This document shows, one piece after another, positions 2,676-44,045 of a stretch of 64,000 nucleotides of DNA. A program made the position numbers and the translations under genes. The stretch lies in the sequence record PP400779; one strand, 5' to 3'. Under the pieces are notes generated by a model, which did no database searches, had not been told where the DNA came from, and saw only the letters and a list, made by a program, of their open reading frames with translations. Source of the DNA: Escherichia phage JM17. Each line of letters opens with the position of its first letter. The stretch's first letter is position 1.

Positions 2676-2676
2676 T

Positions 2677-3181: not shown

Positions 3182-3220
3182 GAGAAATCGGTTTAGGTAT
3201 TTTCTGAGAGATGATTATGC

Positions 3221-3394: not shown

Positions 3395-3418
3395 GAACTC
3401 TTCGGAGTTCCTTTTTTG
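3394..3418 (+). terminator. intrinsic terminator (UUCG tetraloop hairpin + T-run)
   Basis: ggaactc-ttcg-gagttcc followed by tttttt. Confidence 0.6.
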
Positions 3419-3463
3419 CTTTATAAACGGATGATAGAATGAATTAACTAATGAGGAAATAAT

Positions 3464-10503: not shown

Positions 10504-10505
10504 AA

Positions 10506-10874
10506 ATGATCGAAATTAAATTGAAGAACCCCGAAGATTTTCTGAAAGTCAAAGAGACTCTGACCCGTATGGGCATCGCTAATAACAAGGATAAAGTTCT
10601 TTATCAGTCCTGTCATATCCTCCAAAAGCAAGGTAAATATTACATCGTCCACTTTAAAGAAATGCTGCGTATGGACGGACGTCAGGTTGATATTGATGGT
10701 GAAGACTATCAGCGACGTGATTCGATTGCTCAGTTGCTTGAAGACTGGGGCTTGATTGTTATTGAAGACTCTGCTCGTGAAGATCTGTTTGGCCTGACTA
10801 ATAACTTCCGTGTTATCTCTTTTAAACAGAAAGATGACTGGACTTTGAAAGCAAAATATACAATTGGTAATTAA
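10506..10874 (+). CDS. regA: translational repressor RegA
   Basis: 122 aa from ATG 10506 (MIEIKLKNPEDFLKVKETLTRMGIANNKDKVLYQSCHILQK...) nearly identical to remembered T4 RegA. Confidence 0.85.
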   Translation: MIEIKLKNPEDFLKVKETLTRMGIANNKDKVLYQSCHILQKQGKYYIVHFKEMLRMDGRQVDIDGEDYQRRDSIAQLLEDWGLIVIEDSAREDLFGLTNNFRVISFKQKDDWTLKAKYTIGN

Positions 10875-10877
10875 AGC

Positions 10878-10897
10878 AATGGGACTTCGGTCCCATT
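10878..10897 (+). promoter_or_regulatory. UUCG-tetraloop hairpin between regA and gene 43
   Basis: aatgggac-ttcg-gtcccatt, no T-run; terminator or gene 43 translational-operator-like element. Confidence 0.4.
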
Positions 10898-10955
10898 TGG
10901 AGTATAATAAGTTCATCAACAAACAAAAGACAATAACTCGTCTAAAGGAAATTAA

Positions 10956-13667
10956 ATGAAAGAATTTTACTTAACGGTTGAACAGATTGGTGATTCAATT
11001 TTTGAACGTTACATCGATTCTAATGGCCGTGAACGTACTCGTGAAGTAGAATATAAACCATCACTGTTTGCTCATTGTCCAGAAAGTCAGGCTACGAAAT
11101 ATTTCGATATCTACGGTAAGCCGTGTACTCGTAAGTTGTTCGCTAATATGCGTGATGCCTCCCAATGGATTAAACGCATGGAAGATATCGGACTTGAAGC
11201 ACTTGGCATGGACGATTTCAAATTGGCGTATTTGTCTGACACTTATAACTATGAAATCAAATACGACCATACAAAAATTCGTGTGGCTAACTTCGACATC
11301 GAAGTAACATCTCCGGATGGGTTCCCTGAGCCATCACAAGCAAAACATCCGATTGATGCTATCACCCATTATGACTCAATTGACGACAGGTTCTACGTAT
11401 TTGATCTATTGAATTCTCCATATGGTAATGTAGAAGAATGGTCTATTGAAATCGCTGCTAAGCTTCAAGAACAAGGCGGTGATGAAGTTCCATCTGAAAT
11501 TATCGATAAAATCATTTATATGCCGTTCGATAACGAAAAAGAATTGTTGATGGAATATCTCAACTTCTGGCAACAGAAAACTCCTGTCATTTTGACTGGA
11601 TGGAACGTTGAGTCATTCGATATTCCATATGTGTATAACCGAATCAAGAATATTTTTGGCGAATCTACTGCGAAACGTTTATCACCACATCGTAAAACTC
11701 GTGTTAAAGTTATCGAAAACATGTATGGTTCTCGTGAAATCATTACATTGTTCGGTATCTCTGTTCTTGATTACATTGACCTTTACAAAAAATTCTCTTT
11801 TACCAATCAACCGTCGTATTCTCTGGATTACATTTCAGAATTTGAATTGAACGTTGGTAAACTGAAATATGATGGCCCTATTTCTAAGCTTCGTGAAAGC
11901 AATCACCAACGATATATTTCTTATAACATTATCGACGTGTATCGTGTATTGCAAATTGATGCTAAGCGTCAGTTCATCAACTTGAGCTTGGACATGGGTT
12001 ATTATGCTAAGATACAGATTCAATCTGTGTTTAGCCCAATTAAAACATGGGATGCTATTATTTTTAATAGCCTTAAAGAGCAGAACAAGGTGATTCCACA
12101 AGGTCGTTCTCACCCGGTTCAACCTTATCCCGGCGCTTTTGTTAAGGAACCTATTCCAAATCGATACAAATATGTAATGAGTTTCGACCTTACATCTCTG
12201 TATCCAAGTATTATTCGCCAAGTGAATATTAGCCCGGAAACAATAGCAGGAACGTTTAAAGTAGCTCCATTGCATGATTATATTAACGCAATCGCTGAAC
12301 GTCCTTCAGATGTGTACAGTTGCTCTCCTAACGGCATGATGTATTATAAAGACCGTGATGGTGTAGTTCCAACTGAAATCACTAAGGTCTTTAATCAACG
12401 TAAAGAACATAAAGGTTACATGCTTGCAGCTCAACGTAATGGTGAAATAATTAAAGAGGCATTGCATAATCCTAATCTTTCTGTTGACGAACCATTAGAT
12501 GTTGATTATCGTTTCGACTTCAGTGATGAGATTAAAGAAAAGATTAAAAAGTTGTCTGCTAAATCTCTTAATGAAATGTTGTTTAGAGCTCAACGTACTG
12601 AAGTTGCAGGTATGACCGCACAAATTAACCGTAAATTGCTCATCAACTCACTTTATGGTGCACTTGGAAACGTTTGGTTCCGTTATTATGATTTGCGTAA
12701 TGCTACTGCAATCACAACATTCGGGCAAATGGCTTTACAGTGGATTGAACGTAAAGTTAATGAATATCTGAATGAAGTTTGTGGTACAGAAGGTGAAGCT
12801 TTCGTTCTTTATGGTGATACGGACTCTATTTACGTATCTGCTGATAAAATTATCGATAAGGTTGGTGAATCTAAATTCCGTGATACTAACCATTGGGTAG
12901 ACTTCTTAGATAAGTTTGCACGTGAACGTATGGAACCTGCTATTGATAGAGGTTTCCGTGAAATGTGCGAATACATGAACAATAAACAACACTTAATGTT
13001 CATGGACCGAGAAGCTATCGCTGGGCCTCCGCTTGGTTCTAAAGGTATTGGCGGATTTTGGACTGGTAAGAAACGTTATGCATTAAACGTGTGGGATATG
13101 GAAGGTACTCGTTACGCTGAGCCTAAACTCAAAATCATGGGTCTAGAAACTCAGAAATCTTCGACCCCTAAAGCAGTACAGAAAGCTCTTAAAGAATGTA
13201 TTCGTCGTATGCTTCAAGAAGGTGAAGAATCATTACAAGAATATTTTAAAGAGTTTGAAAAAGAATTCCGTCAATTGAATTATATTAGCATCGCGTCGGT
13301 ATCTTCTGCGAATAACATTGCTAAATATGACGTCGGTGGATTCCCTGGTCCTAAATGCCCGTTCCATATTCGTGGAATTCTGACATATAACCGAGCTATC
13401 AAAGGTAATATCGATGCACCACAAGTTGTAGAAGGTGAAAAAGTATATGTTCTGCCTTTACGTGAAGGAAACCCATTCGGTGATAAATGTATCGCATGGC
13501 CTTCTGGTACTGAAATCACAGATTTAATTAAAGACGATGTACTTCATTGGATGGACTACACTGTTCTCCTTGAGAAGACATTTATTAAACCACTTGAAGG
13601 ATTCACATCAGCAGCGAAACTCGATTATGAGAAGAAAGCATCTCTGTTCGATATGTTCGATTTTTGA
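10956..13667 (+). CDS. 43: DNA polymerase gp43 (family B), RB69-type
   Basis: 903 aa; N-terminus MKEFYLTVEQIGDSIFERYIDSNGRERTREVEYKPSLFAHCPESQ and exo/pol motifs (FDIE, YGDTDS) match remembered RB69 gp43. Confidence 0.97.
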   Translation: MKEFYLTVEQIGDSIFERYIDSNGRERTREVEYKPSLFAHCPESQATKYFDIYGKPCTRKLFANMRDASQWIKRMEDIGLEALGMDDFKLAYLSDTYNYEIKYDHTKIRVANFDIEVTSPDGFPEPSQAKHPIDAITHYDSIDDRFYVFDLLNSPYGNVEEWSIEIAAKLQEQGGDEVPSEIIDKIIYMPFDNEKELLMEYLNFWQQKTPVILTGWNVESFDIPYVYNRIKNIFGESTAKRLSPHRKTRVKVIENMYGSREIITLFGISVLDYIDLYKKFSFTNQPSYSLDYISEFELNVGKLKYDGPISKLRESNHQRYISYNIIDVYRVLQIDAKRQFINLSLDMGYYAKIQIQSVFSPIKTWDAIIFNSLKEQNKVIPQGRSHPVQPYPGAFVKEPIPNRYKYVMSFDLTSLYPSIIRQVNISPETIAGTFKVAPLHDYINAIAERPSDVYSCSPNGMMYYKDRDGVVPTEITKVFNQRKEHKGYMLAAQRNGEIIKEALHNPNLSVDEPLDVDYRFDFSDEIKEKIKKLSAKSLNEMLFRAQRTEVAGMTAQINRKLLINSLYGALGNVWFRYYDLRNATAITTFGQMALQWIERKVNEYLNEVCGTEGEAFVLYGDTDSIYVSADKIIDKVGESKFRDTNHWVDFLDKFARERMEPAIDRGFREMCEYMNNKQHLMFMDREAIAGPPLGSKGIGGFWTGKKRYALNVWDMEGTRYAEPKLKIMGLETQKSSTPKAVQKALKECIRRMLQEGEESLQEYFKEFEKEFRQLNYISIASVSSANNIAKYDVGGFPGPKCPFHIRGILTYNRAIKGNIDAPQVVEGEKVYVLPLREGNPFGDKCIAWPSGTEITDLIKDDVLHWMDYTVLLEKTFIKPLEGFTSAAKLDYEKKASLFDMFDF

Positions 13668-13707: not shown

Positions 13708-14343
13708 ATGAAAACTACTCCTATTACTATCGCTATTGACGCAATCATAAAACAAGCTTCTTCTTTGGCCGCTATGGCCAAAGTAATTAGTCAAAACCCT
13801 GCTCGTTATAATGCTATTCTAGAAACTCTTCGACGCCCTGGACTTAGTAATTATGAAAGCCGGGTAATTATTACAGGTGTTGGTAAGAATGCTAATATCG
13901 CAACTAAAGCTTCCGAGACATTTGCTTCACTAGGTATTCCTAGCATGTATTTGAACACTGGGCATTATTCTCACGGTGATGCAGGATTCATTGCGCCTAA
14001 TGATGTGTTGATTCATATTAGTCGTTCTGGTAAGACTGAAGAAATGATAGGTGTTGCTAAACATCTTCGTATGATTCGTCCTCAGGTTAAACAGATTCTG
14101 TTACATTGTAACCCAGACATTCCACAAGAATACGAAGCTCTTTTTGATTATACGTTCTGTACTGGCATCGCGGTAGAGGTTGATGAGAATTCTCTGGCTC
14201 CGACTATGTCCACTACATTGTTGTTAGCGCTTATCGATACGTTTGCTATCAACCTTTCGTCTGAACGTGGATTTACCTCTAATGATTTCCTTAAGTTCCA
14301 TCCAGGCGGTGCACTAGGTGCCATGTTACGAGGCGAACAATGA
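13708..14343 (+). CDS. SIS-domain sugar-phosphate isomerase (KdsD/GutQ-like; candidate D-arabinose-5-phosphate isomerase)
   Basis: 211 aa; VIITGVGKN...SLGIPSMYLN...HGD...HISRSGKTEE...FLKFHPGGALGAMLRG parallels KdsD SIS core; no CBS domains. Confidence 0.75.
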   Translation: MKTTPITIAIDAIIKQASSLAAMAKVISQNPARYNAILETLRRPGLSNYESRVIITGVGKNANIATKASETFASLGIPSMYLNTGHYSHGDAGFIAPNDVLIHISRSGKTEEMIGVAKHLRMIRPQVKQILLHCNPDIPQEYEALFDYTFCTGIAVEVDENSLAPTMSTTLLLALIDTFAINLSSERGFTSNDFLKFHPGGALGAMLRGEQ

Positions 14344-14524: not shown

Positions 14525-16210
14525 ATGAAAAAAGCTGTTATTCTTGGTGCTGGACTGGCAACTCGTTTGTATCCAATAACGCATCATATTCCTAAGGTGC
14601 TTGTTAACTATAAACAAGATACTATTCTGAGCAATTTGTATACAATTTATTCTGACCTTGGCGCAGATGAAATTATTGTAGTAGTTCATTCAAAATTTGC
14701 TGAAACTGTTCGAGCTTATTGTGAACAAGAAGGGTTCAATGTGACTATTCGTACAGTTGATGAAGCGTATGGTTCTGCTTATGCTCTTGCTAAATTACAC
14801 AAAGATTTAGACGGCCATAATGTAATTGTTAACTGGTGTGATATTATTCCTGATTTTGGTTCATGGTCTTGGAATGTTAACGCAATCTATGTTAAGGGTG
14901 ACGAATGTCGATATAATTTCGACGGTGAAAATATCACTAACGTAGGTTCAACAGGTGGTAATGTTGTAGGAATTTATCAGTTCAAAGACTGGGAATTCTA
15001 TATGGGTTCTACTGATGAGGAAATTCATGAATACTGCAAAGGACGTGATTTCGTAGAATTCCTTTACGGCAGCGCATTCAATAAATCAGAGCTTATGAAT
15101 CTAATTGATTTAGGTGATATGCCTAAACTTGAAAAAGCTCATGAAGTTCGTGAACTTAATCGTAGTTTTAATGCAGTTGAAATTGGTGAAGAAACTGTAA
15201 CTAAATTCGCATTAACCGAACAGGGTCGAGCTCTTCAGAAAGATGAGATTTCGTGGTATCTTAAAGTGAAATCAGATTCAGTTCCTCAGTTAGTTTCTGT
15301 TAATGAAAATAACTTTGAAATGGAACGCATTAAAGGTAAGCCTGCATTTGAATATATTAAATCCAAATCAAGTCTTGCTCGTCCACAAATTGTTGATGCA
15401 ATTTTAGATGCACTGAAATTCAGCACAGACACTTATTTTGTAAGTCCTGAAACTGTTCGTCGTGATTTCACTAAAGAATTCTATACGAAAGTTATTGATC
15501 GTTGTGAAAGCATTCAACCATTGATTGATTCATTTGGTAAAATCACACATGTGAACTACACTAAGATTGGACGTCTGAAGCCAATGCTGAAACAAGCTTT
15601 AGAACACCTCATTCGTTATCATAACCGTTCTCAGGGACAGTACTCTGTTATTCACGGTGACCCGAACTTCAGTAATACTATGATTACTGATAATGGCGAA
15701 GTCAAGTTTATCGACCCTCGTGGATATTTTGGTGAAACCAAGATTTACGGGCCAAAATTGTACGATGAAGCTAAAGTGCTTTACGCTGTTTCAGGTTATG
15801 ATGAATTCAATGCTAATCCGACTTGGGGACAGTTTACTATTGATGAAACAACTTGTAATGTGACTATTAACATCAATCCATTAGTTTACAAATATGGAAA
15901 GATGAGTTCGTTTAACGAGTATCATCATTTGGCAGTGGCAATTATCTGGATTGCATTAGGTGGTTATTTCAAGAATAATCCACTTAAAGCGGTAGCCGCA
16001 TATTATAAAGGTATGGAACTTCTGACTAAGCAATTACGTAACATGGGCCGTGTACTTCAGGACGGCTCTATTAGTTATGACGTAGCAGAACCTGTAACGG
16101 CTACTCTGATTACAAAAAATCCTGGTAAATGGGTACTAACTGATAAAGAAACTGGTGTTTCCTATCGTCCAATCGGTGGCGATATCACTCATCAATGGGA
16201 ACGAATTTGA
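14525..16210 (+). CDS. bifunctional sugar-1-phosphate nucleotidyltransferase / APH-fold sugar kinase
   Basis: 561 aa; N-term AVILGAGLATRLYPIT...PKVLV (NTP-transferase G-loop); C-term VIHGDPNFSN...FIDPRG (Brenner HGDxxxxN and DxxG kinase motifs). Confidence 0.7.
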   Translation: MKKAVILGAGLATRLYPITHHIPKVLVNYKQDTILSNLYTIYSDLGADEIIVVVHSKFAETVRAYCEQEGFNVTIRTVDEAYGSAYALAKLHKDLDGHNVIVNWCDIIPDFGSWSWNVNAIYVKGDECRYNFDGENITNVGSTGGNVVGIYQFKDWEFYMGSTDEEIHEYCKGRDFVEFLYGSAFNKSELMNLIDLGDMPKLEKAHEVRELNRSFNAVEIGEETVTKFALTEQGRALQKDEISWYLKVKSDSVPQLVSVNENNFEMERIKGKPAFEYIKSKSSLARPQIVDAILDALKFSTDTYFVSPETVRRDFTKEFYTKVIDRCESIQPLIDSFGKITHVNYTKIGRLKPMLKQALEHLIRYHNRSQGQYSVIHGDPNFSNTMITDNGEVKFIDPRGYFGETKIYGPKLYDEAKVLYAVSGYDEFNANPTWGQFTIDETTCNVTININPLVYKYGKMSSFNEYHHLAVAIIWIALGGYFKNNPLKAVAAYYKGMELLTKQLRNMGRVLQDGSISYDVAEPVTATLITKNPGKWVLTDKETGVSYRPIGGDITHQWERI

Positions 16211-16956
16211 TACATTATCTCTACAAAACTACTAATCTTATAAACGGTAAAGTTTATTTAGGAATGCACTCGGCTGAAGAAGCCGAGCCTTTAGATTTAT
16301 ATAAAGGTTCTGGTAAATTATATAAAAAGGCTGAAAGGAAATATGGGAAGGAAAATTTTCTTAAAGAAATCATTTCCTACCATAGCTCAAGAGAAGAATT
16401 AAAAATAGCTGAAAAGGCTCTAATAACATTAGACATAGTTAAAGACCCAAATTATTACAATCTTAAAACTGGTGGCGAAGGTGGTTCTGACGGGTTATCC
16501 CAAAGGTCCAAGGATAAAATTTCTAAGGCAAATAAAGGACGTTTAGTTGGTGATAAAAACCCAAGATGGGGTAAAACTTTGTCAGCTGAATCTATAGCTA
16601 GGGGTAAAGAAAAGCACAGGAGGTATGGTAAACCTGCATTACATGGTCTAAAGATTAATGTAGATGGCAAATATTATGAATCCTGTCGGGAAGCGGCTAA
16701 AGATTTAGGTATATCTTCTGCCACGATTCAAAAGAGAGTAAAATCGCCTAAATATCTTAATTATCGGTATCAGGACGAAAGCAAAAATGCTCACAAGTCT
16801 CAAAAATTTGTTAAAATAAACGAAAATTACTATGAATCTCTTAGGATAGCTGAAAAGAAAACGGGTATTCCTAGAAAGCGTATAGCTGATAATATTAAAA
16901 ATTCTATTGAAGGATATTGCTATGAAACCATTACATCTTTGCGTGGACGTCGATGA
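16195..16956 (+). CDS. GIY-YIG homing endonuclease (freestanding, seg-like)
   Basis: 253 aa; HYLYKTTNLINGKVYLGMH = GIY-YIG module; AT-rich codons; overlaps both flanking genes. Confidence 0.7.
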   Translation: MGTNLIHYLYKTTNLINGKVYLGMHSAEEAEPLDLYKGSGKLYKKAERKYGKENFLKEIISYHSSREELKIAEKALITLDIVKDPNYYNLKTGGEGGSDGLSQRSKDKISKANKGRLVGDKNPRWGKTLSAESIARGKEKHRRYGKPALHGLKINVDGKYYESCREAAKDLGISSATIQKRVKSPKYLNYRYQDESKNAHKSQKFVKINENYYESLRIAEKKTGIPRKRIADNIKNSIEGYCYETITSLRGRR

Positions 16957-17296
16957 TTGTATAACAGAGTGGAATAACAATCGTGATTACGTGAACTTCA
17001 AACCAGACGTCGAAATGGTGTCTGCCATTAATGCCCTGTATGATGCAGGGCATACAATAACGCTTTACACTGCTCGAGGTATGAAGTCAGTAGGTCCTGG
17101 TCGTATAGCAATTGACATTCTCCCAAGTCTGATTCAGAACTTGGCAAACATTGGCTTGAAGTACCATAATTTGCTAACACATAAACCAGTATATGATTGG
17201 ATTATCGACGACAAAGCTATGCGTCCTGACGAATTCAAAGCTCTTATGAATAAAGGCGAATTCGAAACATTTAAATCATATAAACCGAATCTATAA
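16922..17296 (+). CDS. HAD-like phosphatase (candidate sugar-phosphate phosphatase)
   Basis: 124 aa from ATG 16922; N-terminal hhhhDxDx motif-like LCVDVDDCIT; small size typical of capless HAD. Confidence 0.45.
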   Translation: MKPLHLCVDVDDCITEWNNNRDYVNFKPDVEMVSAINALYDAGHTITLYTARGMKSVGPGRIAIDILPSLIQNLANIGLKYHNLLTHKPVYDWIIDDKAMRPDEFKALMNKGEFETFKSYKPNL

Positions 17297-17353: not shown

Positions 17354-18514
17354 ATGAATACTTTTAAAATTGGAACGAATTTTGATTTAGCTCTTCTTGA
17401 TAAAATCGTAGAGCTCAATAAAACTTATCCTAATAGCTTGATAAACGAAGTATACGGCTCTACAAGAGAAATGGCTTTTGTAGCAGCCAGACCTGATTTT
17501 AGGCTTCCTGACGTTGACAAAAAGATGTTAGAAGATTACGTTAAACGTTGTAACGAATTAGGTATTTGCTTTAACTATACACTCAACACGATAAATCCTG
17601 GTTCAAAAAGAGAACTAGTTGAGTGGAAGAAGAAAGCTATTCAGGATTATGTTCAGTATCTTTGGTCAATAGGCGTATGGCGTATTACTATCGCTAACCC
17701 TGTTGTTATGGAAATTGTTCGTGAAGTCAATAAAGACATTGAGATTGAAGTTTCAACAATTCTACATGTCGATGCTGTAACTCAAATCAAATACTTGCAT
17801 GACCAGTATAATATCAAAAAGGTCTGCTGTGGAATTCATAAGAACCGTTCAGTTTCTTTCCTGAAGCGTGCAGCAGAGTTTTGCAATAAGAACAATATAA
17901 TATTTGAAGTTCTTGTAAATGAGTTCTGTTCTAATGCCGGTAAAGGGTATACAACACATTGTAGCTATCGTGACTCTTGCTATATTTTCCATAGTACTGA
18001 TGTTACAGCTGATGATGCTAAATCCTTAAACGGATATCCTATGCAGCACTGTATTAAAGCTCGTGATACAGACCCATTTAACTGGTTGAGAACTCGTTTT
18101 GTTCGTCCTCAAGATTTGAAACTTTATAATGATATTGGTATCACTCAATTCAAAGTTTCAGGACGTACAGGTAGCACAGACTACATTTTGAAAGTTCTTG
18201 AAGCATACGCTTCTGAAAAGTTTGAAGGTAATTTGTTAGAACTGTGGAAGCCTTTAGAGACTATTTTCACTCTTGAAAATGAGACCGAGTTTTCACATAC
18301 GGTAAATATTGAAACCTCTTTGTTAGATGGCTTTTTAGAAAAAAGGTGGTTCAGACATCCAGATTTCGATTGTGCTAATGAGATCTGCGGGACGACGTGT
18401 ACATATTGTGAAAGATATTATAAACGTCAGTTATCTAAAAATGGGTTAGCAGAAAACTCTATATCTATTATTGATATAACTAACTCTGATGACGCTTTGA
18501 GGTACCCGGAATGA
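17354..18514 (+). CDS. peptidase-U32-family-like protein (PrtC/RlhA/UbiU-like fold), function unknown
   Basis: 386 aa; IGTNFD...VYGS...CFNYTLNT...IEIEVSTILHV...FEVLVNEFCSNAGKGYTTHCSYRDSCYIFHS resembles U32 core incl. Cys cluster; extra CxxxCxxxCxxC near C-terminus. Confidence 0.45.
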   Translation: MNTFKIGTNFDLALLDKIVELNKTYPNSLINEVYGSTREMAFVAARPDFRLPDVDKKMLEDYVKRCNELGICFNYTLNTINPGSKRELVEWKKKAIQDYVQYLWSIGVWRITIANPVVMEIVREVNKDIEIEVSTILHVDAVTQIKYLHDQYNIKKVCCGIHKNRSVSFLKRAAEFCNKNNIIFEVLVNEFCSNAGKGYTTHCSYRDSCYIFHSTDVTADDAKSLNGYPMQHCIKARDTDPFNWLRTRFVRPQDLKLYNDIGITQFKVSGRTGSTDYILKVLEAYASEKFEGNLLELWKPLETIFTLENETEFSHTVNIETSLLDGFLEKRWFRHPDFDCANEICGTTCTYCERYYKRQLSKNGLAENSISIIDITNSDDALRYPE

Positions 18515-18792: not shown

Positions 18793-19509
18793 ATGGGAAA
18801 ACATAACACAATGAAATATATCAAAGCCGCAGATTTTCAAACCGCATTTAAAGCAGTCAATCGTGAAATTTTAGAAAACCCGGAATTCGTAACTGATTCT
18901 CGTATTGGACGTTGTAATGAAATTGGGTCTATGACAGTAGTTGTTGACACTCCATCATCATTCAAAATGACTGACCCACGTATTAACCGCATCTCTTATG
19001 AATATGCCGAAGACTTCTGGAAGTTTATGATTTCTGGTGGTACCAACGCAGAAGAAGCGTTTAAGGCATATCCTAATGTCGCTAAATTTATTTCTAAACC
19101 AAAATCAGATGTTTTGCCGGCGAACTTCAATACTTTCTATGGTCCTCGCATTGCGGCCCAATTACCAGCTCTTCTAAAAGAACTTAAAGAGAAGCCTAAC
19201 TCTCGAAGAGTTGTGTTCCAAATTCTAGAAAGTTCTGATCAGGCTTTGCTTGATTCGGATGAAACGCTTGAATATCCATGTACTGACTCAGTGACTTATT
19301 ATATTCGTGATGGTAAGCTTTATACCCACTGTCATATGCGTTCTCAGAACTGTGCTGTTGTTATGCAGTTGGATTTTTATCTCCAAGGAAAATTACTTCA
19401 TTATATCGCTAACGAATGCGGTGTAGAAGTTGGTGATTATACTCATACCATGGTAAGTGCCCATGTGTTTGAACGTGATTTTGATTATGTTAAAGGATTC
19501 CTTGACTAA
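18793..19509 (+). CDS. 42: dCMP hydroxymethylase gp42 (thymidylate-synthase fold)
   Basis: 238 aa; TS-family core (NSRRVVFQI, PCTDSVTYYIRDGKLY..MRSQN....LD...GV.VGDY) with Asp at the base-specificity position; synteny 43..42..uvsX. Confidence 0.75.
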   Translation: MGKHNTMKYIKAADFQTAFKAVNREILENPEFVTDSRIGRCNEIGSMTVVVDTPSSFKMTDPRINRISYEYAEDFWKFMISGGTNAEEAFKAYPNVAKFISKPKSDVLPANFNTFYGPRIAAQLPALLKELKEKPNSRRVVFQILESSDQALLDSDETLEYPCTDSVTYYIRDGKLYTHCHMRSQNCAVVMQLDFYLQGKLLHYIANECGVEVGDYTHTMVSAHVFERDFDYVKGFLD

Positions 19510-20408
19510 TGGCTATTTTCCGCGTACCAATCTTGAGTATGCGGTCTTATGAAACTGGACAGTATGCTATCCTTAAGGATGGCAACTTCCAACTTCATTT
19601 GCACCGTGCTAATCCGGGTGATGTGATTACATATCCACGTAATGCATCTGATATTAAAGAATGCGAACGTCTTTTCCCAGAATTTAAGTTTGTTCCATTA
19701 TGGTATAAAGATAACGCTTATAACACTCGTAAATATTTCTGGTCTGAAAATGAATTTGTGGTTGATTCATTAATTGCTTATTATGATTGCGATTTTCTAA
19801 TCACAGATATAACTGGATATGACGGCGCTTTTGATGTAGAATTCAATTTCAATATCACTGCAGACCCTAATAAACCACGTTTTTATATTGACGAATTCTT
19901 AAAAACCGACATGTTGTCGGTTAATCGTTCAATCCAAACAACTGTGTTGAATGAACGTCAAAAAGAAGTGCTGGTTAACGCAGGTGCAGATGGTAATAAG
20001 ATTATCGTAACGCAGAAAGTTATACGTCCTTCCATCATGCAGCGTCTTGTAGGTGATTTGGCTCCTATTTATCTAGATGGTATTTTTCATCCATTTCGAA
20101 TTAGTGACCCGTGCTATCGTTTTGAACAAGTGGTTGAATGTGCAATTCAATTAGGTCAACCGCTTTATATAACCGATCCAAATAATAGCTTTGACAGAAA
20201 TAAGTATCCTGAAGAAGCGTTGATTCGAATTTTTAAACCAACTAAAACTGAGTACTATCAAATTCTTAAAGGACGTCCGAAGATTCAATATTTCGAAAAT
20301 CCTGAAGAAGTATTTCATCCAGGTCTTGGTGAGTTCATCTACTTTAATGCTTTAATTTCTTCACCGTATAATATACCTAAATATGAAGATGTCGTAATCG
20401 AGGAATAA
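19509..20408 (+). CDS. hypothetical protein in the T4 beta-gt slot (candidate DNA-modification transferase)
   Basis: 299 aa; start overlaps gene 42 stop (TAATG); not recognisable as T4 beta-glucosyltransferase. Confidence 0.4.
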   Translation: MAIFRVPILSMRSYETGQYAILKDGNFQLHLHRANPGDVITYPRNASDIKECERLFPEFKFVPLWYKDNAYNTRKYFWSENEFVVDSLIAYYDCDFLITDITGYDGAFDVEFNFNITADPNKPRFYIDEFLKTDMLSVNRSIQTTVLNERQKEVLVNAGADGNKIIVTQKVIRPSIMQRLVGDLAPIYLDGIFHPFRISDPCYRFEQVVECAIQLGQPLYITDPNNSFDRNKYPEEALIRIFKPTKTEYYQILKGRPKIQYFENPEEVFHPGLGEFIYFNALISSPYNIPKYEDVVIEE

Positions 20409-20409
20409 A

Positions 20410-20958
20410 ATGGCTAAAATTATTTTAGTAGATGGCCCGGATAATGCTGGTAAAACAACTTTCATTAATGACATAATGGAAATTAGTGAAAGATATGTAA
20501 AAATTGATTTCCCTAAACGAACAGTTGATGGACGTTTCGATGTTAAGTCTCGAAATGAAGTTGGCTGTTTTGAAACGATGTTGAATTATTTAGACCCTAC
20601 TAAGATTTATCTGTTAGACCGTGGATATATTAGTAACTGGGTTTACGGACGTATTCGACAAGATGCGGACTCGGTTCTTGACGTTTATGAACAGGATTAT
20701 ATTCGTCTTTGCCAAAACCATGATGTGTTCACAATTATTTTAACACGTAACGAAATGACTGAAAGTTTTGAAGATGACCTTATTACTTTGTCTTCATTAG
20801 GTTTTAATACAGTCATTTCACATTTTGAAGAGTTTGCAATTCATAACAAAATCCAAACGTATCAATTACTTAATCATGATGGTGCTAACAAAGTTATAGG
20901 ATTTAATGCAAGCGAACGTAATGATTTGATTACAGAAATCATCAAATGGGCTCGTTAA
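20410..20958 (+). CDS. P-loop kinase, thymidylate-kinase-like
   Basis: 182 aa; Walker A VDGPDNAGKTT and DRGYISNWVYG (DR-Y/F motif of dNMP kinases). Confidence 0.55.
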   Translation: MAKIILVDGPDNAGKTTFINDIMEISERYVKIDFPKRTVDGRFDVKSRNEVGCFETMLNYLDPTKIYLLDRGYISNWVYGRIRQDADSVLDVYEQDYIRLCQNHDVFTIILTRNEMTESFEDDLITLSSLGFNTVISHFEEFAIHNKIQTYQLLNHDGANKVIGFNASERNDLITEIIKWAR

Positions 20959-35659: not shown

Positions 35660-35689
35660 GTTTACAACCAAGGATGGTTGGAGTATAAT
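35660..35689 (+). promoter_or_regulatory. early-type promoter
   Basis: gtttac 35660-35665, spacer 18, tataat 35684-35689. Confidence 0.5.
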
Positions 35690-35719
35690 GAATCTATCTT
35701 AAACAAAGAGAGAAAAAAT

Positions 35720-36184
35720 ATGATTAATATTGGTGAAATTAAACGTGTATCGACAGCGTCTCGTTCTAAAGCTGCAGGAAAGCTGGTTGAAGTAGTAGGA
35801 CTTCGTACTAATGGCATGGGCCGTATTAAAGAAGTTAAAGTTCGAATCATTCCTAGTTCTGGAAAAACTGAAACTCAGTTCGCCTATGTAAGTCCTAAAT
35901 TCTTGGAAACTCGTGTACGTGTCCAATTTGCTTCAAGCGATATCGTTGAGCCTACTACACAGTTCAAATGGGCCCTTTGCAAAGGCGTTGAATTTATAAC
36001 CGATAAAGAATTTGATTACATCGACGAATACGGTTATCCAAGCAAAACTGATACTATGTGCGGCTTCATCAGCGACCAATGGGTTGAAGATGGTAAAAAG
36101 CTATACAATATTGTATTCTTAGGTGACTTCCGAGTTGTTGAAGAATCTGAAATCACTCGCTATGTGTCTCCTCGTAAAGCTTAA
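35720..36184 (+). CDS. hypothetical protein, paralog A of a tandem pair (MotB position)
   Basis: 154 aa from ATG 35720; shares SRSKAAGKLVEV..VKVR..G..YV...F.E...QFKW.LC..V core with next ORF. Confidence 0.45.
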   Translation: MINIGEIKRVSTASRSKAAGKLVEVVGLRTNGMGRIKEVKVRIIPSSGKTETQFAYVSPKFLETRVRVQFASSDIVEPTTQFKWALCKGVEFITDKEFDYIDEYGYPSKTDTMCGFISDQWVEDGKKLYNIVFLGDFRVVEESEITRYVSPRKA

Positions 36185-36193
36185 GGAATTATT

Positions 36194-36613
36194 ATGAATA
36201 TTGCAAATCTCTCTATTGGTGATTATGTACACGTATCGGATGCTTCTCGCTCTAAAGTTGCTGGGAAGTTGGTTGAAGTTCTTTCTGTGAGTGATCCGGT
36301 TTTTGGACGTAACGAAGTTAAAGTTCGTGACTCCGATGGTAACATTGGTTACGTTAAAAGCCAATTCATTGAACCAGAAGAAAAAGCGTTCAAATGGGGA
36401 CTATGCAGATCAGTTTCTGTTGAAAAAGACCATGAATTCACTATTGCTGCGGCAACTGATGGAACACCGTGGAAAACTAAGCAAATCGCCGGATTTATTA
36501 GCGACCGTTGGGTAGAAGATGGTGTTAAGCTTTATAACATCGTTTTCGCTGGTCAGTTCATGGTAGTTCCTGAATTCCAAATTAAAAAATATAGCCCAGC
36601 TGCTTTCGCATAA
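36194..36613 (+). CDS. hypothetical protein, paralog B of tandem pair
   Basis: 139 aa; DASRSKVAGKLVEV...FKWGLC...GFISDRWVEDGVKLYNIVF parallels paralog A. Confidence 0.45.
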   Translation: MNIANLSIGDYVHVSDASRSKVAGKLVEVLSVSDPVFGRNEVKVRDSDGNIGYVKSQFIEPEEKAFKWGLCRSVSVEKDHEFTIAAATDGTPWKTKQIAGFISDRWVEDGVKLYNIVFAGQFMVVPEFQIKKYSPAAFA

Positions 36614-38076: not shown

Positions 38077-38502
38077 ATGGCTTTTAAAGGTTTTGAAGTT
38101 GGTAAGAAATATCGTATTATCAAAGGACAGGAAGATAATTTCTTGAGAATTCTTAATACGACTGGTAAACGTCTTAATACTAATCTGCATACTACTTTAT
38201 TGTCCAAAGATTTTATTGTGGAAGAGATGATTGGTTACGGTGTTTCGGTTATTGCTGTAGAAGCCGTAGGCGATTATGGCCGAACTATTCATAGTATGCA
38301 AGGTGATATTCTGCTTTATGGTGCAGAATTTAAATTCTTTGAAGAAGTTCCGGAACCAGATACAGCTGTCGATTTCAAAAAAGGCTCTATAGAATTTGTT
38401 GATGGTTCGGTGATCGTATCAGGCGATGTGGTCATTACAGTTAAAAGTGAACAAGGGCGTTTGGCTGCAATCGATACACTTCAGAAAATTAAATTTAAAT
38501 AA
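38077..38502 (+). CDS. hypothetical protein (141 aa)
   Basis: ORF followed directly by intrinsic terminator. Confidence 0.4.
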   Translation: MAFKGFEVGKKYRIIKGQEDNFLRILNTTGKRLNTNLHTTLLSKDFIVEEMIGYGVSVIAVEAVGDYGRTIHSMQGDILLYGAEFKFFEEVPEPDTAVDFKKGSIEFVDGSVIVSGDVVITVKSEQGRLAAIDTLQKIKFK

Positions 38503-38520
38503 GGGCTTCGGCCCTTTTTG
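38502..38520 (+). terminator. intrinsic terminator (UUCG hairpin + T-run)
   Basis: agggc-ttcg-gccct followed by ttttt. Confidence 0.6.
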
Positions 38521-38565: not shown

Positions 38566-40383
38566 ATGATTAAAAATGAAATTAAGGTATTGACAGATGT
38601 AGAACATATTAAGAAACGTAGTGGTATGTATATTGGTTCTTCGGCTAAAGAAGCACATGAGCGTTTTTTGTTTGGTAAATATCAACAAGTTGAATATGTT
38701 CCTGGTCTGGTTAAATTAATCGATGAGATTATTGACAACTCGGTTGATGAAGCTATTCGTACATCATTTAAGTTTGCAAATAAAATTGATGTGCAAATTA
38801 AAAATAATCAAGTTTCGGTGGAAGATAACGGACGCGGTATTCCTCAAGGTTTAGTTACTGACCAAACAGGTGAACAAATTCCTGGTCCTGTAGCGGCCTG
38901 GACTATTCCAAAGGCTGGTGGTAACTTTGGTGATGATTCTGAACGCAAGACTGGTGGTATGAACGGCGTCGGGAGTAGTTTAACTAATATCTTCTCTACG
39001 TTGTTTACAGGCATCACGTCAGATGGCGAAAACGAAATCACTGTTAACTGTTCAAACGGAATGGAAAACAAATCATGGTCTTCTAAGAAATCTAAAGGTA
39101 AAGGCACTAAAGTAATCTTCACTCCTGATTTCTCTTCATTTGAAGAGCATAATTTATCTCAAATTTATTTAGATATTACTTTAGACCGACTTCAAACATT
39201 GGCAGTCGTTTATCCTGATATCAAGTTCACATTTAATGGTAAAAAGGTTGATGGTAATTTTAAACGATTTGCTAAACAATTTGGTGAAGATAACATCATT
39301 CAAGAAAATGATAAAGTCTCTATAGCATTCACAACATCACCAGATGGCTTCCGTCATTTAACTTATGTGAATAACATCCATACTAAAAATGGTGGTCATC
39401 ATGTTGAATGCGTAATGGATGATATCTGCGAACATCTTTTGCCGGGTATTAAAAAGAAATATAAGGGTATTGAAGTCACTAAAGCTCGTGTTAAAGAATG
39501 CCTCACAATGTTGATGTTTATTAGAGACATGAGCAACATGCGTTTTGATTCTCAGACTAAAGAACGTTTAACGTCAACGTATGGTGATATTCGTAATCAT
39601 ATCCAATTAGATGCTAAGAAAATTGCTCAGGCACTTCTTAAAAACGAAGCCTTGATTATGCCTATTGTTGAAGCAGCATTAGCTCGTAAATTGGCAGCAG
39701 AAAAGGCTGCAGAAACTAAAGCAGCTAAAAAGGCAACTAAAGCTAAGGTTCATAAGCATATTAAAGCTAACCAATGTGGTAAAGATGCAGATACGACATT
39801 GTTTTTAACAGAAGGTGATTCGGCAATTGGTTATCTCATTGATGTTCGTGACCGTGAACTACACGGCGGATTCCCATTACGTGGTAAGGTGATGAATAGC
39901 TGGGGTATGTCATATGCTGATATGATGAAGAACAAAGAGCTCTTTGATATCTGTGCTATCACAGGTCTTATTCTTGGTGAAAAGGCAGAGAATACGAACT
40001 ATCGTAATATTGCAATTATGACCGATGCCGATCACGACGGTCTTGGAAGTATTTATCCTGCTTTGCTTGCTTTCTTTAGTAATTGGCCCGAATTGTTTGA
40101 ACAAGGACGTATTCGCTTTGTTAAAACACCTGTAATTATTGCACAAATTGGCAAAACTCAAAAATGGTTTTATACTGTAGCTGAGTATGAAGAAGTTAAA
40201 GATACACTGCCTAAGCATAGTATTCGATACATCAAGGGATTGGGCTCACTTCAGCGGGATGAATATAAAGAAATGATTCAAAACCCTGTGTACGACGTAG
40301 TTAAACTTCCTGAAAATTGGAAAGAACTCTTTGAAATGTTGTTGGGTGATGATTCAGAACTTCGTAAAGAATGGATGTCCTAA
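38566..40383 (+). CDS. 39: DNA topoisomerase II large subunit gp39 (GyrB-like), fused 39+60 form
   Basis: 605 aa; GHKL ATPase motifs (DNSVDEAI, EDNGRGIP), Toprim region; length equals T4 gp39+gp60. Confidence 0.9.
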   Translation: MIKNEIKVLTDVEHIKKRSGMYIGSSAKEAHERFLFGKYQQVEYVPGLVKLIDEIIDNSVDEAIRTSFKFANKIDVQIKNNQVSVEDNGRGIPQGLVTDQTGEQIPGPVAAWTIPKAGGNFGDDSERKTGGMNGVGSSLTNIFSTLFTGITSDGENEITVNCSNGMENKSWSSKKSKGKGTKVIFTPDFSSFEEHNLSQIYLDITLDRLQTLAVVYPDIKFTFNGKKVDGNFKRFAKQFGEDNIIQENDKVSIAFTTSPDGFRHLTYVNNIHTKNGGHHVECVMDDICEHLLPGIKKKYKGIEVTKARVKECLTMLMFIRDMSNMRFDSQTKERLTSTYGDIRNHIQLDAKKIAQALLKNEALIMPIVEAALARKLAAEKAAETKAAKKATKAKVHKHIKANQCGKDADTTLFLTEGDSAIGYLIDVRDRELHGGFPLRGKVMNSWGMSYADMMKNKELFDICAITGLILGEKAENTNYRNIAIMTDADHDGLGSIYPALLAFFSNWPELFEQGRIRFVKTPVIIAQIGKTQKWFYTVAEYEEVKDTLPKHSIRYIKGLGSLQRDEYKEMIQNPVYDVVKLPENWKELFEMLLGDDSELRKEWMS

Positions 40384-40404
40384 GCTCCTTCGGGAGCTTC
40401 ATTT
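40383..40404 (+). terminator. UUCG hairpin after gene 39 (weak terminator)
   Basis: agctcc-ttcg-ggagct then tcatttt. Confidence 0.4.
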
Positions 40405-40425: not shown

Positions 40426-41526
40426 ATGAAAGTTATGTTTATCCCATCTCGCGCAGTCCCATTTAACCCAGAACGTGTACAAGGTGGTCTTGAAGCAGTA
40501 CATTTAAATGTGTTGAAATATCTTGTGTCCATCGGTGCTGATATTGATTATATCGGCTTTGATAATGACACGTTTGGTGACTGGAAGGTTAATCATCATC
40601 CTGTTGGTCATCTGACTAAATTCAGTCTAGGTATGAGTTATACTATGGCTCGTAAGATTGTTGAACTAGCCGGCATTAATGAGTACGATTTCGTTGTTAC
40701 AATGGAACCGACCAAACTAACCGTTCAGGCAATTAAAGACGCAGGTCTCTCTAAAGTTCATAAGAATTTTATGGCAACACCATTTGAACCAGTATCTCGT
40801 GGCATTGTTCAAATTTGGGACCAGACTATTCAAATTCGTAAGAATGGTGGTAAGAGTTATGCTCCTACTAAAGCCTTCCGTGAATTTGAACGCAAATATT
40901 GTTATATGACTTCAGGTCTGACTGACAAAATTGATTATGATTATTGGCGAGCAAATCCGTTGTTTGAAGCCGAAGATTATCCGGTTATTTGTTTGAATGA
41001 GAAACCTGAAGTTCTTCCGGCGACGGATCTGATTATTAGTGCACAACGTTATGACACTAAAATGCGTCGTACTGATGTTGCTCTTGAAGCGATTAAAGCA
41101 CTAGGCGAAAATGGTGTAGGATACTGTCCTAGTAAATGGGCACCACCGGCTAAGTATCCTGTTATTATTGATGCTCCACACAGTGAAATCATGGAACGTC
41201 TTAAAACAGCTAAAGCACTTATCAATACGTGTCCTGACACGGGTACGGTAGAGAATAGTTCTATTGAAGCCATCTCTAAAGGTGTCCCTGTGATTCAGTT
41301 AGTTTTTAAGGATTATCCGCACGCGACATTCGAATATGACCCAGATACTGTGCGTGTAGAAATTGATTCCTCTACTCCTAAGAAAGAAGTAGTTGCGCTT
41401 TACACAAAAGCTGTATTAGAATTCACTGACACATACGAAGCTCGAGTTAAACGTGCTGAAGCAGTATGGAAGAAGTATAATCGAGATGCAGTTGTTGCGA
41501 TGTGGGATAAAATCTTCACAGCGTAA
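40426..41526 (+). CDS. GT-B-like glycosyltransferase (candidate hmC-DNA glycosyl/arabinosyl-transferase)
   Basis: 366 aa; C-terminal TGTVENSSIEAISKGVPVI resembles GT4 ExnE donor-binding motif; location between 39 and rIIA. Confidence 0.5.
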   Translation: MKVMFIPSRAVPFNPERVQGGLEAVHLNVLKYLVSIGADIDYIGFDNDTFGDWKVNHHPVGHLTKFSLGMSYTMARKIVELAGINEYDFVVTMEPTKLTVQAIKDAGLSKVHKNFMATPFEPVSRGIVQIWDQTIQIRKNGGKSYAPTKAFREFERKYCYMTSGLTDKIDYDYWRANPLFEAEDYPVICLNEKPEVLPATDLIISAQRYDTKMRRTDVALEAIKALGENGVGYCPSKWAPPAKYPVIIDAPHSEIMERLKTAKALINTCPDTGTVENSSIEAISKGVPVIQLVFKDYPHATFEYDPDTVRVEIDSSTPKKEVVALYTKAVLEFTDTYEARVKRAEAVWKKYNRDAVVAMWDKIFTA

Positions 41527-41618: not shown

Positions 41619-41819
41619 ATGAGAACATATAACGTGGACTTGGAACTTTTTGATAAAGCAGTGCTCCGGGAATTCCGGCTTATCCAAAGATTTTTTGATA
41701 TCGAGTCAGCAGAGTCCTTTAAAGAACGCTTTAAAGAAATTCGATATAAAATACAAACCGATACAGCTACTAAAGAAGAACTTCTCGAAGTGGCAGAAAT
41801 TTTTAAACGTAACTTGTGA
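41619..41819 (+). CDS. hypothetical protein (66 aa; rIIA.1 position)
   Basis: ORF immediately upstream of rIIA. Confidence 0.35.
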   Translation: MRTYNVDLELFDKAVLREFRLIQRFFDIESAESFKERFKEIRYKIQTDTATKEELLEVAEIFKRNL

Positions 41820-41831: not shown

Positions 41832-44045
41832 ATGATTATTGAAACGGCTAAAGAAACGATTATTGGTTCTGGTGGTAAAAGCACAGCATTTACTATTCAA
41901 GGCAATAGCAAAGTTTATAAGATTTTGTCTAATGACCTTTATACAAACAAAGAATTGGCTTGTGTACGTGAATTAATCACAAACTGTATCGATGGACAAA
42001 TTCTTAATGGTTGCACTGATAAGTTTATTGTTCAGGCTCCAGGTCGTTTAGACCCACGTTTTGTAGTTCGAGACTTTGGTCCTGGTATGAGTGATTTCAC
42101 CATTCGAGGTAATGACGAAGAGCCAGGAATCTATAACTCATATTTTGCTTCAACTAAAACATCGAGTAACGATTTCATTGGTGGATTCGGACTCGGTTCT
42201 AAAGCTCCACTAGCATATACCGATACGTTTAACCTTACGTCTTATCACAACGGTGAAGTTCGTGGTTACGTAATCTACCAAGATGACACGGGTCCACAAA
42301 TTAAGCCAACCTTTGTAGATAAGATGGGCCCCGATGACCGTACGGGTGTAGAAGTAGTTGTACCGGTTAACCCAGAAGATTTTGAAAAGTTCGCATCTGA
42401 AATTGCATATGTTATGCGTCCTCTAGGTGATATTGCAGAAGTTCGTGGTGTTAAAGATATTAAATACTTCCCTGAATTTGACGATGTATATTTGGCCAAG
42501 GAAGCTCCATGGGGTGAACGCGGTAATATCATGGCTGTTTACGGTGGTATTGTATATCCAATCGGAAGTGTTATTAAAGAACAAACATGGATGATGACGC
42601 GATGCACTACAGCTTATATTAAATTCCCTATGGGTGAACTAGATGTAGCCCCGTCTCGTGAAGCATTGTCATTTGATAAACGTACAGTAGCAAATATCCA
42701 TAAACGTGTTGCAGAAATCGATGCTAAATTGTTCGCTGAAGATTCTAAGAAATGGATTGATTGTAAATACCCACGTCATGTGTTCCGTGAAATTGATTCT
42801 CTTGGCTATACCGCTCGTAAATACATGGAAAAGGCCGGGTCTAATATTGAATCACTGAAATACTCTAAAGAACAACTAACTTATTCCGAGTTGTACAAAC
42901 GTTTTAAAATGGGGCCTGAGTGGTGTAATCTTGGCGTCGTATACGATATCGTTGAATCCCCTCGTCTTCGTCGTATTCGTGAAAGTGGTAGCTCATCAAC
43001 AACCATTTCAATTAATAGCCTGATTGGCATTAACATTAAAAACGTTGAAATTGTTATTGACGACGTTAAGGGACGCGTTCCATTAATGCGAGCTCTTAAT
43101 TCAATTGAAATGTCTAAAGACGAGGTTAAATTAACCGGTAAAGTTCCACGCGGTTTTGGTAAAAGCGTACTATTCGTTGACCCTACAGACGAAGATGCAA
43201 TGAAACTTCTGGAACGCCTTAAAGTTATCTTTGATGGCGACAACATTAACATGTACAAGACTTCAGAGCTTTTACAAATCGTTAAGCCATGGATTGAAGT
43301 CAAGACTCGTTCTAATGGGCCTCGCCCTAAATCACCGAGTGCCCATCGTTTCTTCAAGAACGAAAACGATGTTTGGGTATCGGAAGATCTCTTTATTCCG
43401 GCAAGTGAAGCAGATGAAATCCAAGGTTATGCTATAGTTCGTAATCGTTCTAATGCTGAATGTCTTGACTCAGATAAAGGTTGGTTGAACTATGACTCCA
43501 ATTTCTTGACCCGTATTGCTGATTTGTCAGGTATTAAAGAGTTCACTGTAGTCCGTCCACAGATTGCTAAGAAAGTTCGTAAACTTGGTGAAGTAGAATG
43601 CTTGTTCGAAAAATCAATTAATGACTATATTACGCTAATTGATAAAGTGGATTATGATGAGTATGTATCACCAAGTCGTAGAGCACAGCCTTATTTGAAT
43701 CATATTACTCGTAATGAAGAGCTTAACTTCCTTAGTAAGTATTTTAGCTCTAAGAACAAAGAAATCAGTAAAGATTTTGCAAAACTTTCAACAGTAAATA
43801 ATCGTTGGGGATGGAATCGATTCGCAGGTGCTGATAACAGAGACCTGAACACGAAGTTAGAATTGTGTGCTAAAATTTTCGATAAGCTTAAAGATAATGC
43901 TTACGATAATGATGATAAAATGGTTATTGAATTCGAAACCAATTATCATATTGTGTCAGAATACATGGGACGACGTGGTACTCTTTCCAAAGAACAGGTC
44001 GCTCAAATCGTTAAATTCATGAAGGCCGTGGAAGCGGCCAAATAA
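41832..44045 (+). CDS. rIIA: rIIA protein
   Basis: 737 aa; MIIETAKETIIGSGGKSTAFTI...ELITNCIDG...GFGLGSK close to remembered T4 rIIA. Confidence 0.85.
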   Translation: MIIETAKETIIGSGGKSTAFTIQGNSKVYKILSNDLYTNKELACVRELITNCIDGQILNGCTDKFIVQAPGRLDPRFVVRDFGPGMSDFTIRGNDEEPGIYNSYFASTKTSSNDFIGGFGLGSKAPLAYTDTFNLTSYHNGEVRGYVIYQDDTGPQIKPTFVDKMGPDDRTGVEVVVPVNPEDFEKFASEIAYVMRPLGDIAEVRGVKDIKYFPEFDDVYLAKEAPWGERGNIMAVYGGIVYPIGSVIKEQTWMMTRCTTAYIKFPMGELDVAPSREALSFDKRTVANIHKRVAEIDAKLFAEDSKKWIDCKYPRHVFREIDSLGYTARKYMEKAGSNIESLKYSKEQLTYSELYKRFKMGPEWCNLGVVYDIVESPRLRRIRESGSSSTTISINSLIGINIKNVEIVIDDVKGRVPLMRALNSIEMSKDEVKLTGKVPRGFGKSVLFVDPTDEDAMKLLERLKVIFDGDNINMYKTSELLQIVKPWIEVKTRSNGPRPKSPSAHRFFKNENDVWVSEDLFIPASEADEIQGYAIVRNRSNAECLDSDKGWLNYDSNFLTRIADLSGIKEFTVVRPQIAKKVRKLGEVECLFEKSINDYITLIDKVDYDEYVSPSRRAQPYLNHITRNEELNFLSKYFSSKNKEISKDFAKLSTVNNRWGWNRFAGADNRDLNTKLELCAKIFDKLKDNAYDNDDKMVIEFETNYHIVSEYMGRRGTLSKEQVAQIVKFMKAVEAAK

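Follow-up and report, generated by a model that had tools for sequence, protein, structure and literature searches.

The gene located between topoisomerase gene 39 and rIIA in Escherichia phage JM17 raises the question of which sugar its product attaches, and to which acceptor. In the 64,000-nt stretch of sequence record PP400779 that was analyzed (hereafter, the window), this interval holds a 366-aa ORF, which a sequence-only reading had taken for a GT-B-like glycosyltransferase and for the best candidate for the enzyme that decorates hmC in phage DNA, possibly with arabinose.

Locus and nearest relatives

The ATG-initiated ORF lies exactly where it had been placed between gene 39 and rIIA, at 40426..41526 (+) (an open reading frame of the window), and is a real gene. 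Its product matched PHROG 8302 over the full length (positions 1-366 of 366, E = 1e-221). A TAAGG ribosome-binding site precedes the start codon, and a hairpin located 27 nt upstream of the ATG (Table 1) resembles an RNA-stabilising or terminator-like element. A sigma-70 scan returned fewer promoter-like sites than were obtained in shuffled sequence.

The DNA of the locus was 98% identical to that of many RB69-like (Mosigvirus) coliphages, and the source of the window is a Mosigvirus, that is, an RB69-like phage. The 366-aa ORF was identical to RB69p003 (RB69ORF003c/gp3, NP_861693.1) at 361 of 366 positions (99%) and, over its full length, to the glycosyltransferase of phage HY126 at 357 of 366 positions (98%). 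Two structures of the HY126 protein, PDB 9IQZ (apo) and 9IR0 (with UDP), were recovered both by sequence (E = 8.5e-248) and by fold (E = 4e-47); they were released on 2025-07-16. The GenBank translation of the HY126 protein reads GVLGIQ, whereas the PDB sequence and the window both read GVPVIQ. The Bas46 ortholog, bas46_0103, is labelled 'putative hmC-arabinosyltransferase' in GenBank, and the Bas47 ortholog is labelled likewise. The arabinosyltransferase idea is not new: the prediction for RB69 ORF003c dates from 2018 (PMC6024577), and it also stands in the Bas46 GenBank annotation. The 366-aa gene is thus already known: its ortholog has a name and a solved structure, and it has been discussed repeatedly.

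The family of the 366-aa ORF is tiny: clustering at 90% identity left 5 clusters, and a set of 1.84 billion proteins held 11 representatives at the 50% level. A scan of IMG/VR for homologs gave 7 loci, all of them in Mosigvirus or Acinetobacter-phage lineages. A 39%-identical member was found in an unrelated contig, where it is surrounded by tail and terminase genes and has no arabinose cluster in its vicinity, so that the family is not strictly bound to the arabinosylation pathway. Another relative adjoins DNA ligase and DsbA homologs, and one metagenomic homolog carries the source name 'glycosyltransferase involved in cell wall biosynthesis'. The family at large may serve further purposes.

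Table 1. Features of the gene 39-rIIA locus and of the arabinosylation cluster in the window (positions in nt; a blank cell means that no entry was given).
Feature	Position	Strand	Remarks
SIS-domain sugar-phosphate isomerase	13708..14343	+	Pfam SIS; RB69 gp55 / DLP3 gp83 position (arabinose-5-phosphate isomerase)
Bifunctional NTP-transferase + kinase-like	14525..16210	+	Pfam NTP_transferase, weak kinase-family matches; RB69 gp52:53 / HY126 AfhE position
GIY-YIG/NUMOD homing-endonuclease-like ORF	16195..16956		Inserted
Small HAD-phosphatase-like	16907..17296	+	59% identity to DLP3 gp81; RB69 gp51 / AfhF equivalent (role from PMC13326640)
Peptidase-U32-like	17354..18514	+	Pfam PF01136; RB69 gp50 position (Table 1 of PMC13326640)
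Thymidylate-synthase (ThyA) homolog, gene-42-like	18793..19509	+	Pfam PF00303; 5-hydroxy-dCMP synthase signature
299-aa compact GT-B, putative base-proximal alpha-arabinosyltransferase	19509..20408	+	RB69 gp46:47 / DLP3 gp79 equivalent
182-aa ORF	20410..20958	+	Position only: RB69 gp45 / DLP3 gp78 (nucleotide-kinase-like); no Pfam match
Gene 39, topoisomerase large subunit	38566..40383		Upstream neighbour of the 366-aa ORF
UUCG-tetraloop hairpin AAGCTCC-TTCG-GGAGCTT	40382..40399	+	Directly after the gene 39 stop codon
366-aa GT-B protein, putative second (chain-extending) DNA arabinosyltransferase	40426..41526	+	RB69 ORF003c/gp3 and HY126 glycosyltransferase ortholog
Motif TGTVENSSIEAISKGVPVI	41239..41295	+	Residues 272-290 of 366; C-terminal Rossmann domain, 76 residues before the C terminus
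rIIA.1	41619..41819		Downstream of the 366-aa ORF
rIIA	41832..44045		Downstream of the 366-aa ORF

Fold and conserved motifs of the 366-aa protein

No family was assigned to the 366-aa protein by Pfam at E <= 10, and NCBIfam gave no match. Its relatives yielded only sub-threshold matches to GT4-conflict or Glycos_transf_1 (12-17 bits against cut-offs of 26-27), and the 366-aa protein itself did not reach the curated threshold of PF00534 for GT4 membership. In HMMER profile searches of PDB sequences, performed with two family alignments, the only significant match was 9iqz, with neither a GT4 enzyme nor a T4 enzyme among the significant matches.

The AF2 model of the protein was mediocre because the family is so small: the overall pLDDT was 61, and the N-domain was poor, with residues 109-187 below 50. 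The C-domain was modelled better, with means over 10-residue blocks mostly in the range of 80-90, but with a value of about 59 over residues 271-280, inside TGTVENSSIEAISKGVPVI. Owing to the poor N-domain, the reading of the fold leans on the near-identical solved HY126 structure. In the model, beta/alpha alternation was present in both halves, and the N-terminal MKVMFIPSRA, previously read as a beta strand, indeed forms one at residues 2-6. Comparison of the model with the PDB by Foldseek gave 177 matches at E <= 1e-3, the 50 listed being GT-B without exception; the HY126 structures were followed by PimA, BshA, WaaG, PglA and tll1591 (E from 1e-8 to 1e-6). Further matches were viral enzymes of the GT1 type, among them glycosyltransferases of rhizobiophages and a cyanophage 'DNA alpha-GT'. 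The glycosyltransferase fold that the sequence-only reading had left to structure comparison is therefore present, given the matches to PimA, BshA, WaaG and PglA, and the 366-aa protein is a GT-B, GT4-like nucleotide-sugar glycosyltransferase. The title of PDB 9ir0 ('with UDP') indicates that the 98%-identical HY126 protein binds a nucleotide-sugar donor.

The motif TGTVENSSIEAISKGVPVI, with which the ORF had been said to end, stops well short of the C terminus (Table 1). Within it, the family shows no variation at G273, T274, E276, S279, E281, A282 and G286; the same holds for R208 and R214, and every full-length member has G20 and G21. By analogy with GT4 enzymes, the motif probably contributes to binding of the UDP-sugar. 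As for the claimed likeness to a GT4-type donor-binding region, the GT-B/GT4-like fold was borne out by Foldseek and by the HY126 structure, whereas the glutamate spacing was not: E276 and E281 form E-x4-E, which resembles a shortened version of the E-x7-E of canonical GT4 enzymes.

Modified base and the arabinosylation cluster

Arabinose in RB69 DNA was described by Thomas et al. in 2018, when the base was named arabinosyl-hmC and ORF003c was proposed as the arabinosyltransferase on the grounds of HMM/HHpred similarity to T4 alpha-gt and GT4 enzymes (PMC6024577). According to NMR and MS data of 2026, the base in RB69 is beta-D-Araf-(1->3)-alpha-D-Araf-5-hydroxy-2'-deoxycytidine (PMC13326640), the arabinose being carried on 5-hydroxycytosine via a C5 ether link and not on hmC (PMC13326640, PMC13390438). 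The 5-hydroxy-dCMP precursor is made by RB69 gp48, a flavin-dependent ThyA homolog (PMC13326640). In an independent study of Mosigvirus NP, the base was likewise 5-hydroxycytosine, with mono- and di-arabinosyl-dC in a ratio of 1:4 (PMC13390438), and double arabinosylation was reported for Bas46 and Bas47 (PMC12923530).

The ThyA homolog of the window has L143E, D169N and N177D (E. coli ThyA numbering), which is the signature of 5-hydroxy-dCMP synthase. The reference was what we take to be the E. coli ThyA sequence, and the numbering based on Cys146 was consistent with it. The alignment was anchored on this catalytic residue of E. coli ThyA, and the three-substitution criterion was that of PMC13326640. 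Based on this signature and on the published NMR/MS data, the acceptor base in RB69-type phage DNA is 5-hydroxycytosine, not 5-hydroxymethylcytosine, and the hmC named in the sequence-only reading has to be replaced accordingly.

A complete gene cluster for UDP-arabinose and 5-hydroxy-dCMP was found at 13.7-21 kb, between DNA polymerase and uvsX (Table 1); the genome of the 366-aa ORF thus also carries a 5-hydroxy-dCMP synthase, UDP-arabinose genes and a gp46:47-type transferase, all within this segment. The function of RB69 gp52:53 and AfhE is to make UDP-arabinofuranose (PMC13326640). The true start of the HAD-phosphatase-like ORF is probably downstream of the endonuclease ORF that overlaps it.

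The beta-gt slot, between the ThyA homolog and uvsX, had been considered empty or occupied by an unrelated gene; in fact, it is filled by the 299-aa GT-B protein. No Pfam match and no PDB sequence match were obtained for this protein, which was modelled by AF2 as a compact GT-B with a pLDDT of 94.6; Foldseek matches of the model included MshA, UDP-GlcNAc 2-epimerases and also 9ir0. Its identity to DLP3 gp79 was 46%. Comparison of the 366-aa and 299-aa families by hhalign revealed no relationship (probability 0.3%), and since profile-profile similarity was not found, the two transferases are not recent paralogs.

Candidate chain-extending role and comparison with known systems

In the hypothesis of 2018, the 366-aa protein would be the primary transferase, which places arabinose directly onto the modified cytosine. 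Such a role would suit the retaining character of GT4-like enzymes, as the base-proximal linkage is alpha. It is also in line with the GenBank labels of the Bas46 and Bas47 orthologs and with the HMM/HHpred similarity to T4 alpha-gt and GT4 enzymes (PMC6024577). However, the base is 5-hydroxycytosine and not hmC, and the phyletic pattern also makes this role unlikely. By tblastn, the 366-aa family was detected in 211 phage records at 267 places, namely in Mosigvirus-type Escherichia/Shigella phages, in Acinetobacter phages and in one Tegunavirus record, whereas the 299-aa gene was detected in 350 phage records, including Escherichia, Acinetobacter, Klebsiella, Serratia, Enterobacter, Proteus and Yersinia phages, Dhakavirus and others. 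Consequently, about 140 phage records (350 versus 211) have the 299-aa transferase and a ThyA-like gene without the 366-aa family. One of them is Serratia LC53, for which arabinosylated 5-hydroxy-dC has been reported; it has the 299-aa gene but no 366-aa homolog, there being no Serratia record among the 211. Similarly, the DNA of Thanatos is mono-arabinosylated, and this phage has a single arabinosyltransferase, of the 299-aa type and syntenic to gp46:47 (PMC13326640). The earlier claim that the 366-aa protein is the transferase decorating phage DNA therefore holds as regards its place in an arabinosylation system, but not as regards its being the sole transferase, the 299-aa enzyme being the commoner one.

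One copy of the 366-aa family was found per Mosigvirus record and two in every Acinetobacter record listed, which fits the 267 places in 211 records. This copy number matches the chain length, with one extra sugar in RB69, NP and Bas46/47 and two extra sugars in DLP3. In Acinetobacter phage DLP3, the full-length homologs gp77 and gp76 (42% and 40% identical to the 366-aa ORF, respectively) are tandem copies located inside the arabinosylation cluster, beside gp78-gp83. Their identity to each other was 58%, that is, higher than to the 366-aa ORF, which places the duplication inside the Acinetobacter-phage lineage. The 366-aa ORF was also considered as a specific ortholog of gp77; this was rejected, as gp76 and gp77 are mutually closer than either is to it. 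On these sequence identities, the ORF is co-orthologous to both.

DLP3 DNA is tri-arabinosylated (PMC13326640). Purified gp76 and gp77 together put a third arabinose on RB69 DNA from UDP-Araf in vitro, whereas gp76 or gp77 alone was inactive, and the product measured for the pair was tri-arabinose, not di-arabinose (PMC13326640). DNA with bare 5-hydroxycytosine was not modified by any single glycosyltransferase (PMC13326640); the DLP3 homologs thus extend arabinosylated DNA yet are inactive on the bare base, which further argues against a primary transferase. The mutual need of gp76 and gp77 and their tri-arabinose product suggest that the single-copy Mosigvirus enzyme may differ from them or need a partner. 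The 366-aa protein could accordingly be weak or inactive alone and serve as a specificity or processivity subunit in a complex for polyarabinosylation, either as a homo-oligomer or with the 299-aa transferase. The inactivity of each DLP3 protein by itself, together with the duplication that gave rise to the pair, is compatible with such a subunit, which is nevertheless improbable: the HY126 protein was crystallised with bound UDP, according to the 9ir0 title, the candidate donor-site residues R208, R214, E276 and E281 are family-invariant, as expected for an active enzyme, and di-arabinose is made by phages with a single Mosigvirus copy. A non-DNA target, such as a virion protein or a component of the host envelope, to which the 39% homolog amid tail and terminase genes and the 'cell wall biosynthesis' name of the metagenomic homolog could point, is highly improbable in view of the co-occurrence of the family with the arabinosylation cluster (in which it is embedded in Acinetobacter phages), the action of the DLP3 homologs on DNA in vitro and the early DNA-metabolism genes, gene 39 and rIIA, that flank the 366-aa ORF.

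Thus, the phyletic pattern, the copy number, the DLP3 gene neighbourhood and the DLP3 biochemistry favor chain extension rather than base attachment, and the 366-aa ORF most probably encodes a chain-extending second DNA arabinosyltransferase, a UDP-Araf-dependent GT-B enzyme. In PMC13326640, gp46:47 was proposed as the first transferase and RB69 gp3 as 'beta-arabinosyltransferase 2', responsible for the second sugar. In the accessible literature, we found no report in which the Mosigvirus protein itself was assayed directly. In the proposed sequence of events, cytosine would be replaced by 5-hydroxycytosine, the 5-hydroxy-dCMP being supplied by the ThyA homolog, while the products of the cluster at 13.7-17.3 kb would convert pentose phosphate into UDP-Araf. 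The 299-aa GT-B protein would then attach the first alpha-arabinofuranose to the C5 oxygen, and the 366-aa protein would add the second arabinofuranose to the first, in beta-(1->3) linkage in RB69. We infer both that the mono-to-di step belongs to the 366-aa enzyme specifically and that it has this stereochemistry. The product would be the di-arabinosylated cytosine that dominates Mosigvirus DNA, and it would give an extra shield against host nucleases and glycosylases. In a passage of PMC13216743 that cites Mahler et al., Bas46 lacking the arabinosyltransferase Aat is described as susceptible to plasmid-borne defence. This deletion phenotype fits an accessory role, and Aat may possibly be the product of the 366-aa gene.

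For this gene, the fold, the crystal structure and the proposed role are already present in the literature and databases, and the gain here is a corrected annotation: 5-hydroxycytosine instead of hmC, two transferases instead of one, and the 366-aa gene as the proposed second. Since arabinosylation of their DNA affects how sensitive phages are to restriction enzymes, CRISPR-Cas, DNA glycosylases and type IV systems, the assignment of enzymes to sugars matters, and it is relevant to phage therapy and phage engineering.

Among the known systems, the closest is RB69, in which ORF003c/gp3 is likewise located between gene 39 and rIIA.1; it differs from the 366-aa ORF by only five substitutions and is its ortholog in a sister Mosigvirus isolate. 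The HY126 structure, a few substitutions apart, is an experimental structure of essentially the 366-aa protein. The more distant DLP3 proteins gp76 and gp77 share the conserved motifs of the 366-aa protein.

The GT4 enzymes PimA, BshA, WaaG and PglA were the best non-phage structural matches. Like the 366-aa protein, they have a GG loop near the N terminus (G20-G21 in the 366-aa protein), two arginines spaced R-x5-R (R208 and R214) and, in the C-domain, a glutamate motif with GxPVI after it. The 366-aa protein is unlike them in the lack of a Pfam Glycos_transf_1 match, in the E-x4-E spacing and in the putative acceptor, which is a DNA-borne sugar. GT4 enzymes are retaining, whereas the putative product of the 366-aa protein is beta-linked; formation of a beta linkage from a UDP-alpha-D-Araf donor would require inversion, and the choice between retention and inversion would hinge on the donor anomer. 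It is rather doubtful that the protein is an inverting beta-(1->3)-Araf transferase on a GT4-like scaffold, acting alone on a sugar attached to dsDNA, unlike the gp76/gp77 pair, with divergent relatives in non-T4 phages that perhaps serve other glycosylation.

T4 alpha-gt (GT72) and beta-gt (GT63) are also GT-B enzymes; they act on phage DNA once it has been replicated and use a UDP-sugar to glycosylate its modified cytosine. ORF003c was matched to 1XV5 by HHpred with E = 1.9e-24 (Thomas 2018, PMC6024577), while the PDB profile searches performed here, which cover both T4 enzymes, revealed no sequence homology to either of them. The genomic location of the 366-aa ORF is unlike that of the T4 glucosyltransferase genes, and the substrates also differ: the T4 enzymes use UDP-Glc as the donor and the hydroxymethyl group on hmC as the acceptor, whereas the putative donor of the 366-aa protein is UDP-Araf and its putative acceptor is a sugar borne by 5-hydroxycytosine.

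Interruptions and neighbouring elements at the glycosyltransferase locus

In Shigella phage JK45, the ortholog of the 366-aa GT-B glycosyltransferase was found in two pieces over approximately 1.6 kb, annotated as two hypothetical proteins, and in Escherichia phage p000v, the 2-kb query region including the ortholog gave two matching pieces over approximately 2.8 kb, with a homing endonuclease annotated within the region of the split match. Based on these two phages, the locus appears to be an insertion site for mobile elements. Immediately 3' of the gene 39 stop codon, a UUCG tetraloop was identified on a perfect 7-bp stem, and a similar GC-rich TTCG hairpin was located upstream of gene 39. 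Two neighbouring ORFs of the window (168 and 139 aa) were clear paralogs, sharing, among others, the strings ASRSKAAGKLVEV and GFISD(Q/R)WVEDG(K/V)KLYNIVF.

Coordinates of the features in the window and in related sequences
Feature	Sequence	Position	Strand
GIY-YIG/NUMOD homing-endonuclease ORF	window	16195..16956	+
Thymidylate-synthase homolog	window	18793..19509	+
Paralogous ORF, 168 aa	window	35678..36184	+
Paralogous ORF, 139 aa	window	36194..36613	+
TTCG hairpin	window	38501..38516	
UUCG hairpin	window	40382..40399	+
HY126 ortholog	L003 (PP658200.1)	2501..3598	
JK45 ortholog, two pieces	NC_054940.1	2523..4123	
p000v split match	p000v	146029..148829	
Divergent family member	L011 (Logan SRR34261890_53613)	10001..11140	
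DLP3 gp77 and gp76	L001	7001..9296	

Arabinosylation cluster

The arabinosylation cluster is interrupted by an I-TevI/SegE-like homing-endonuclease ORF, which on one side overlaps the AfhE-like gene, at the 3' end of that gene, and on the other side the first part of the HAD-phosphatase-like ORF; comparison of the cluster gene order revealed no equivalent of this ORF at the corresponding place in phage DLP3. Three substitutions, L143E, D169N, and N177D in the numbering of the E. coli enzyme, are present in the thymidylate-synthase homolog; in the literature, this combination is the signature of 5-hydroxy-dCMP synthases that depend on flavin, and not of dCMP hydroxymethylases.

Relatives of the glycosyltransferase

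Inside the conserved motif, the GenBank translation of the HY126 ortholog reads SKGVLGIQ, but SKGVPVIQ is found at this place in both the window and the sequence of PDB 9IQZ; this mismatch could be a sequencing or construct difference. The family member in L011, a Logan contig, was 39% identical and was flanked by large tail and structural genes (Peptidase_M23, a T4 gp13-like gene, and DUF4815) and a terminase, with no arabinosylation genes within 10 kb. It may act on a different substrate.

The two DLP3 homologs, gp77 and gp76, had a mutual identity of 58%, whereas each was 40–42% identical to the Mosigvirus protein. Consequently, their duplication is later than the split from the Mosigvirus lineage, and the published one-to-one equivalence of gp3 and gp77 finds no support in the sequences.
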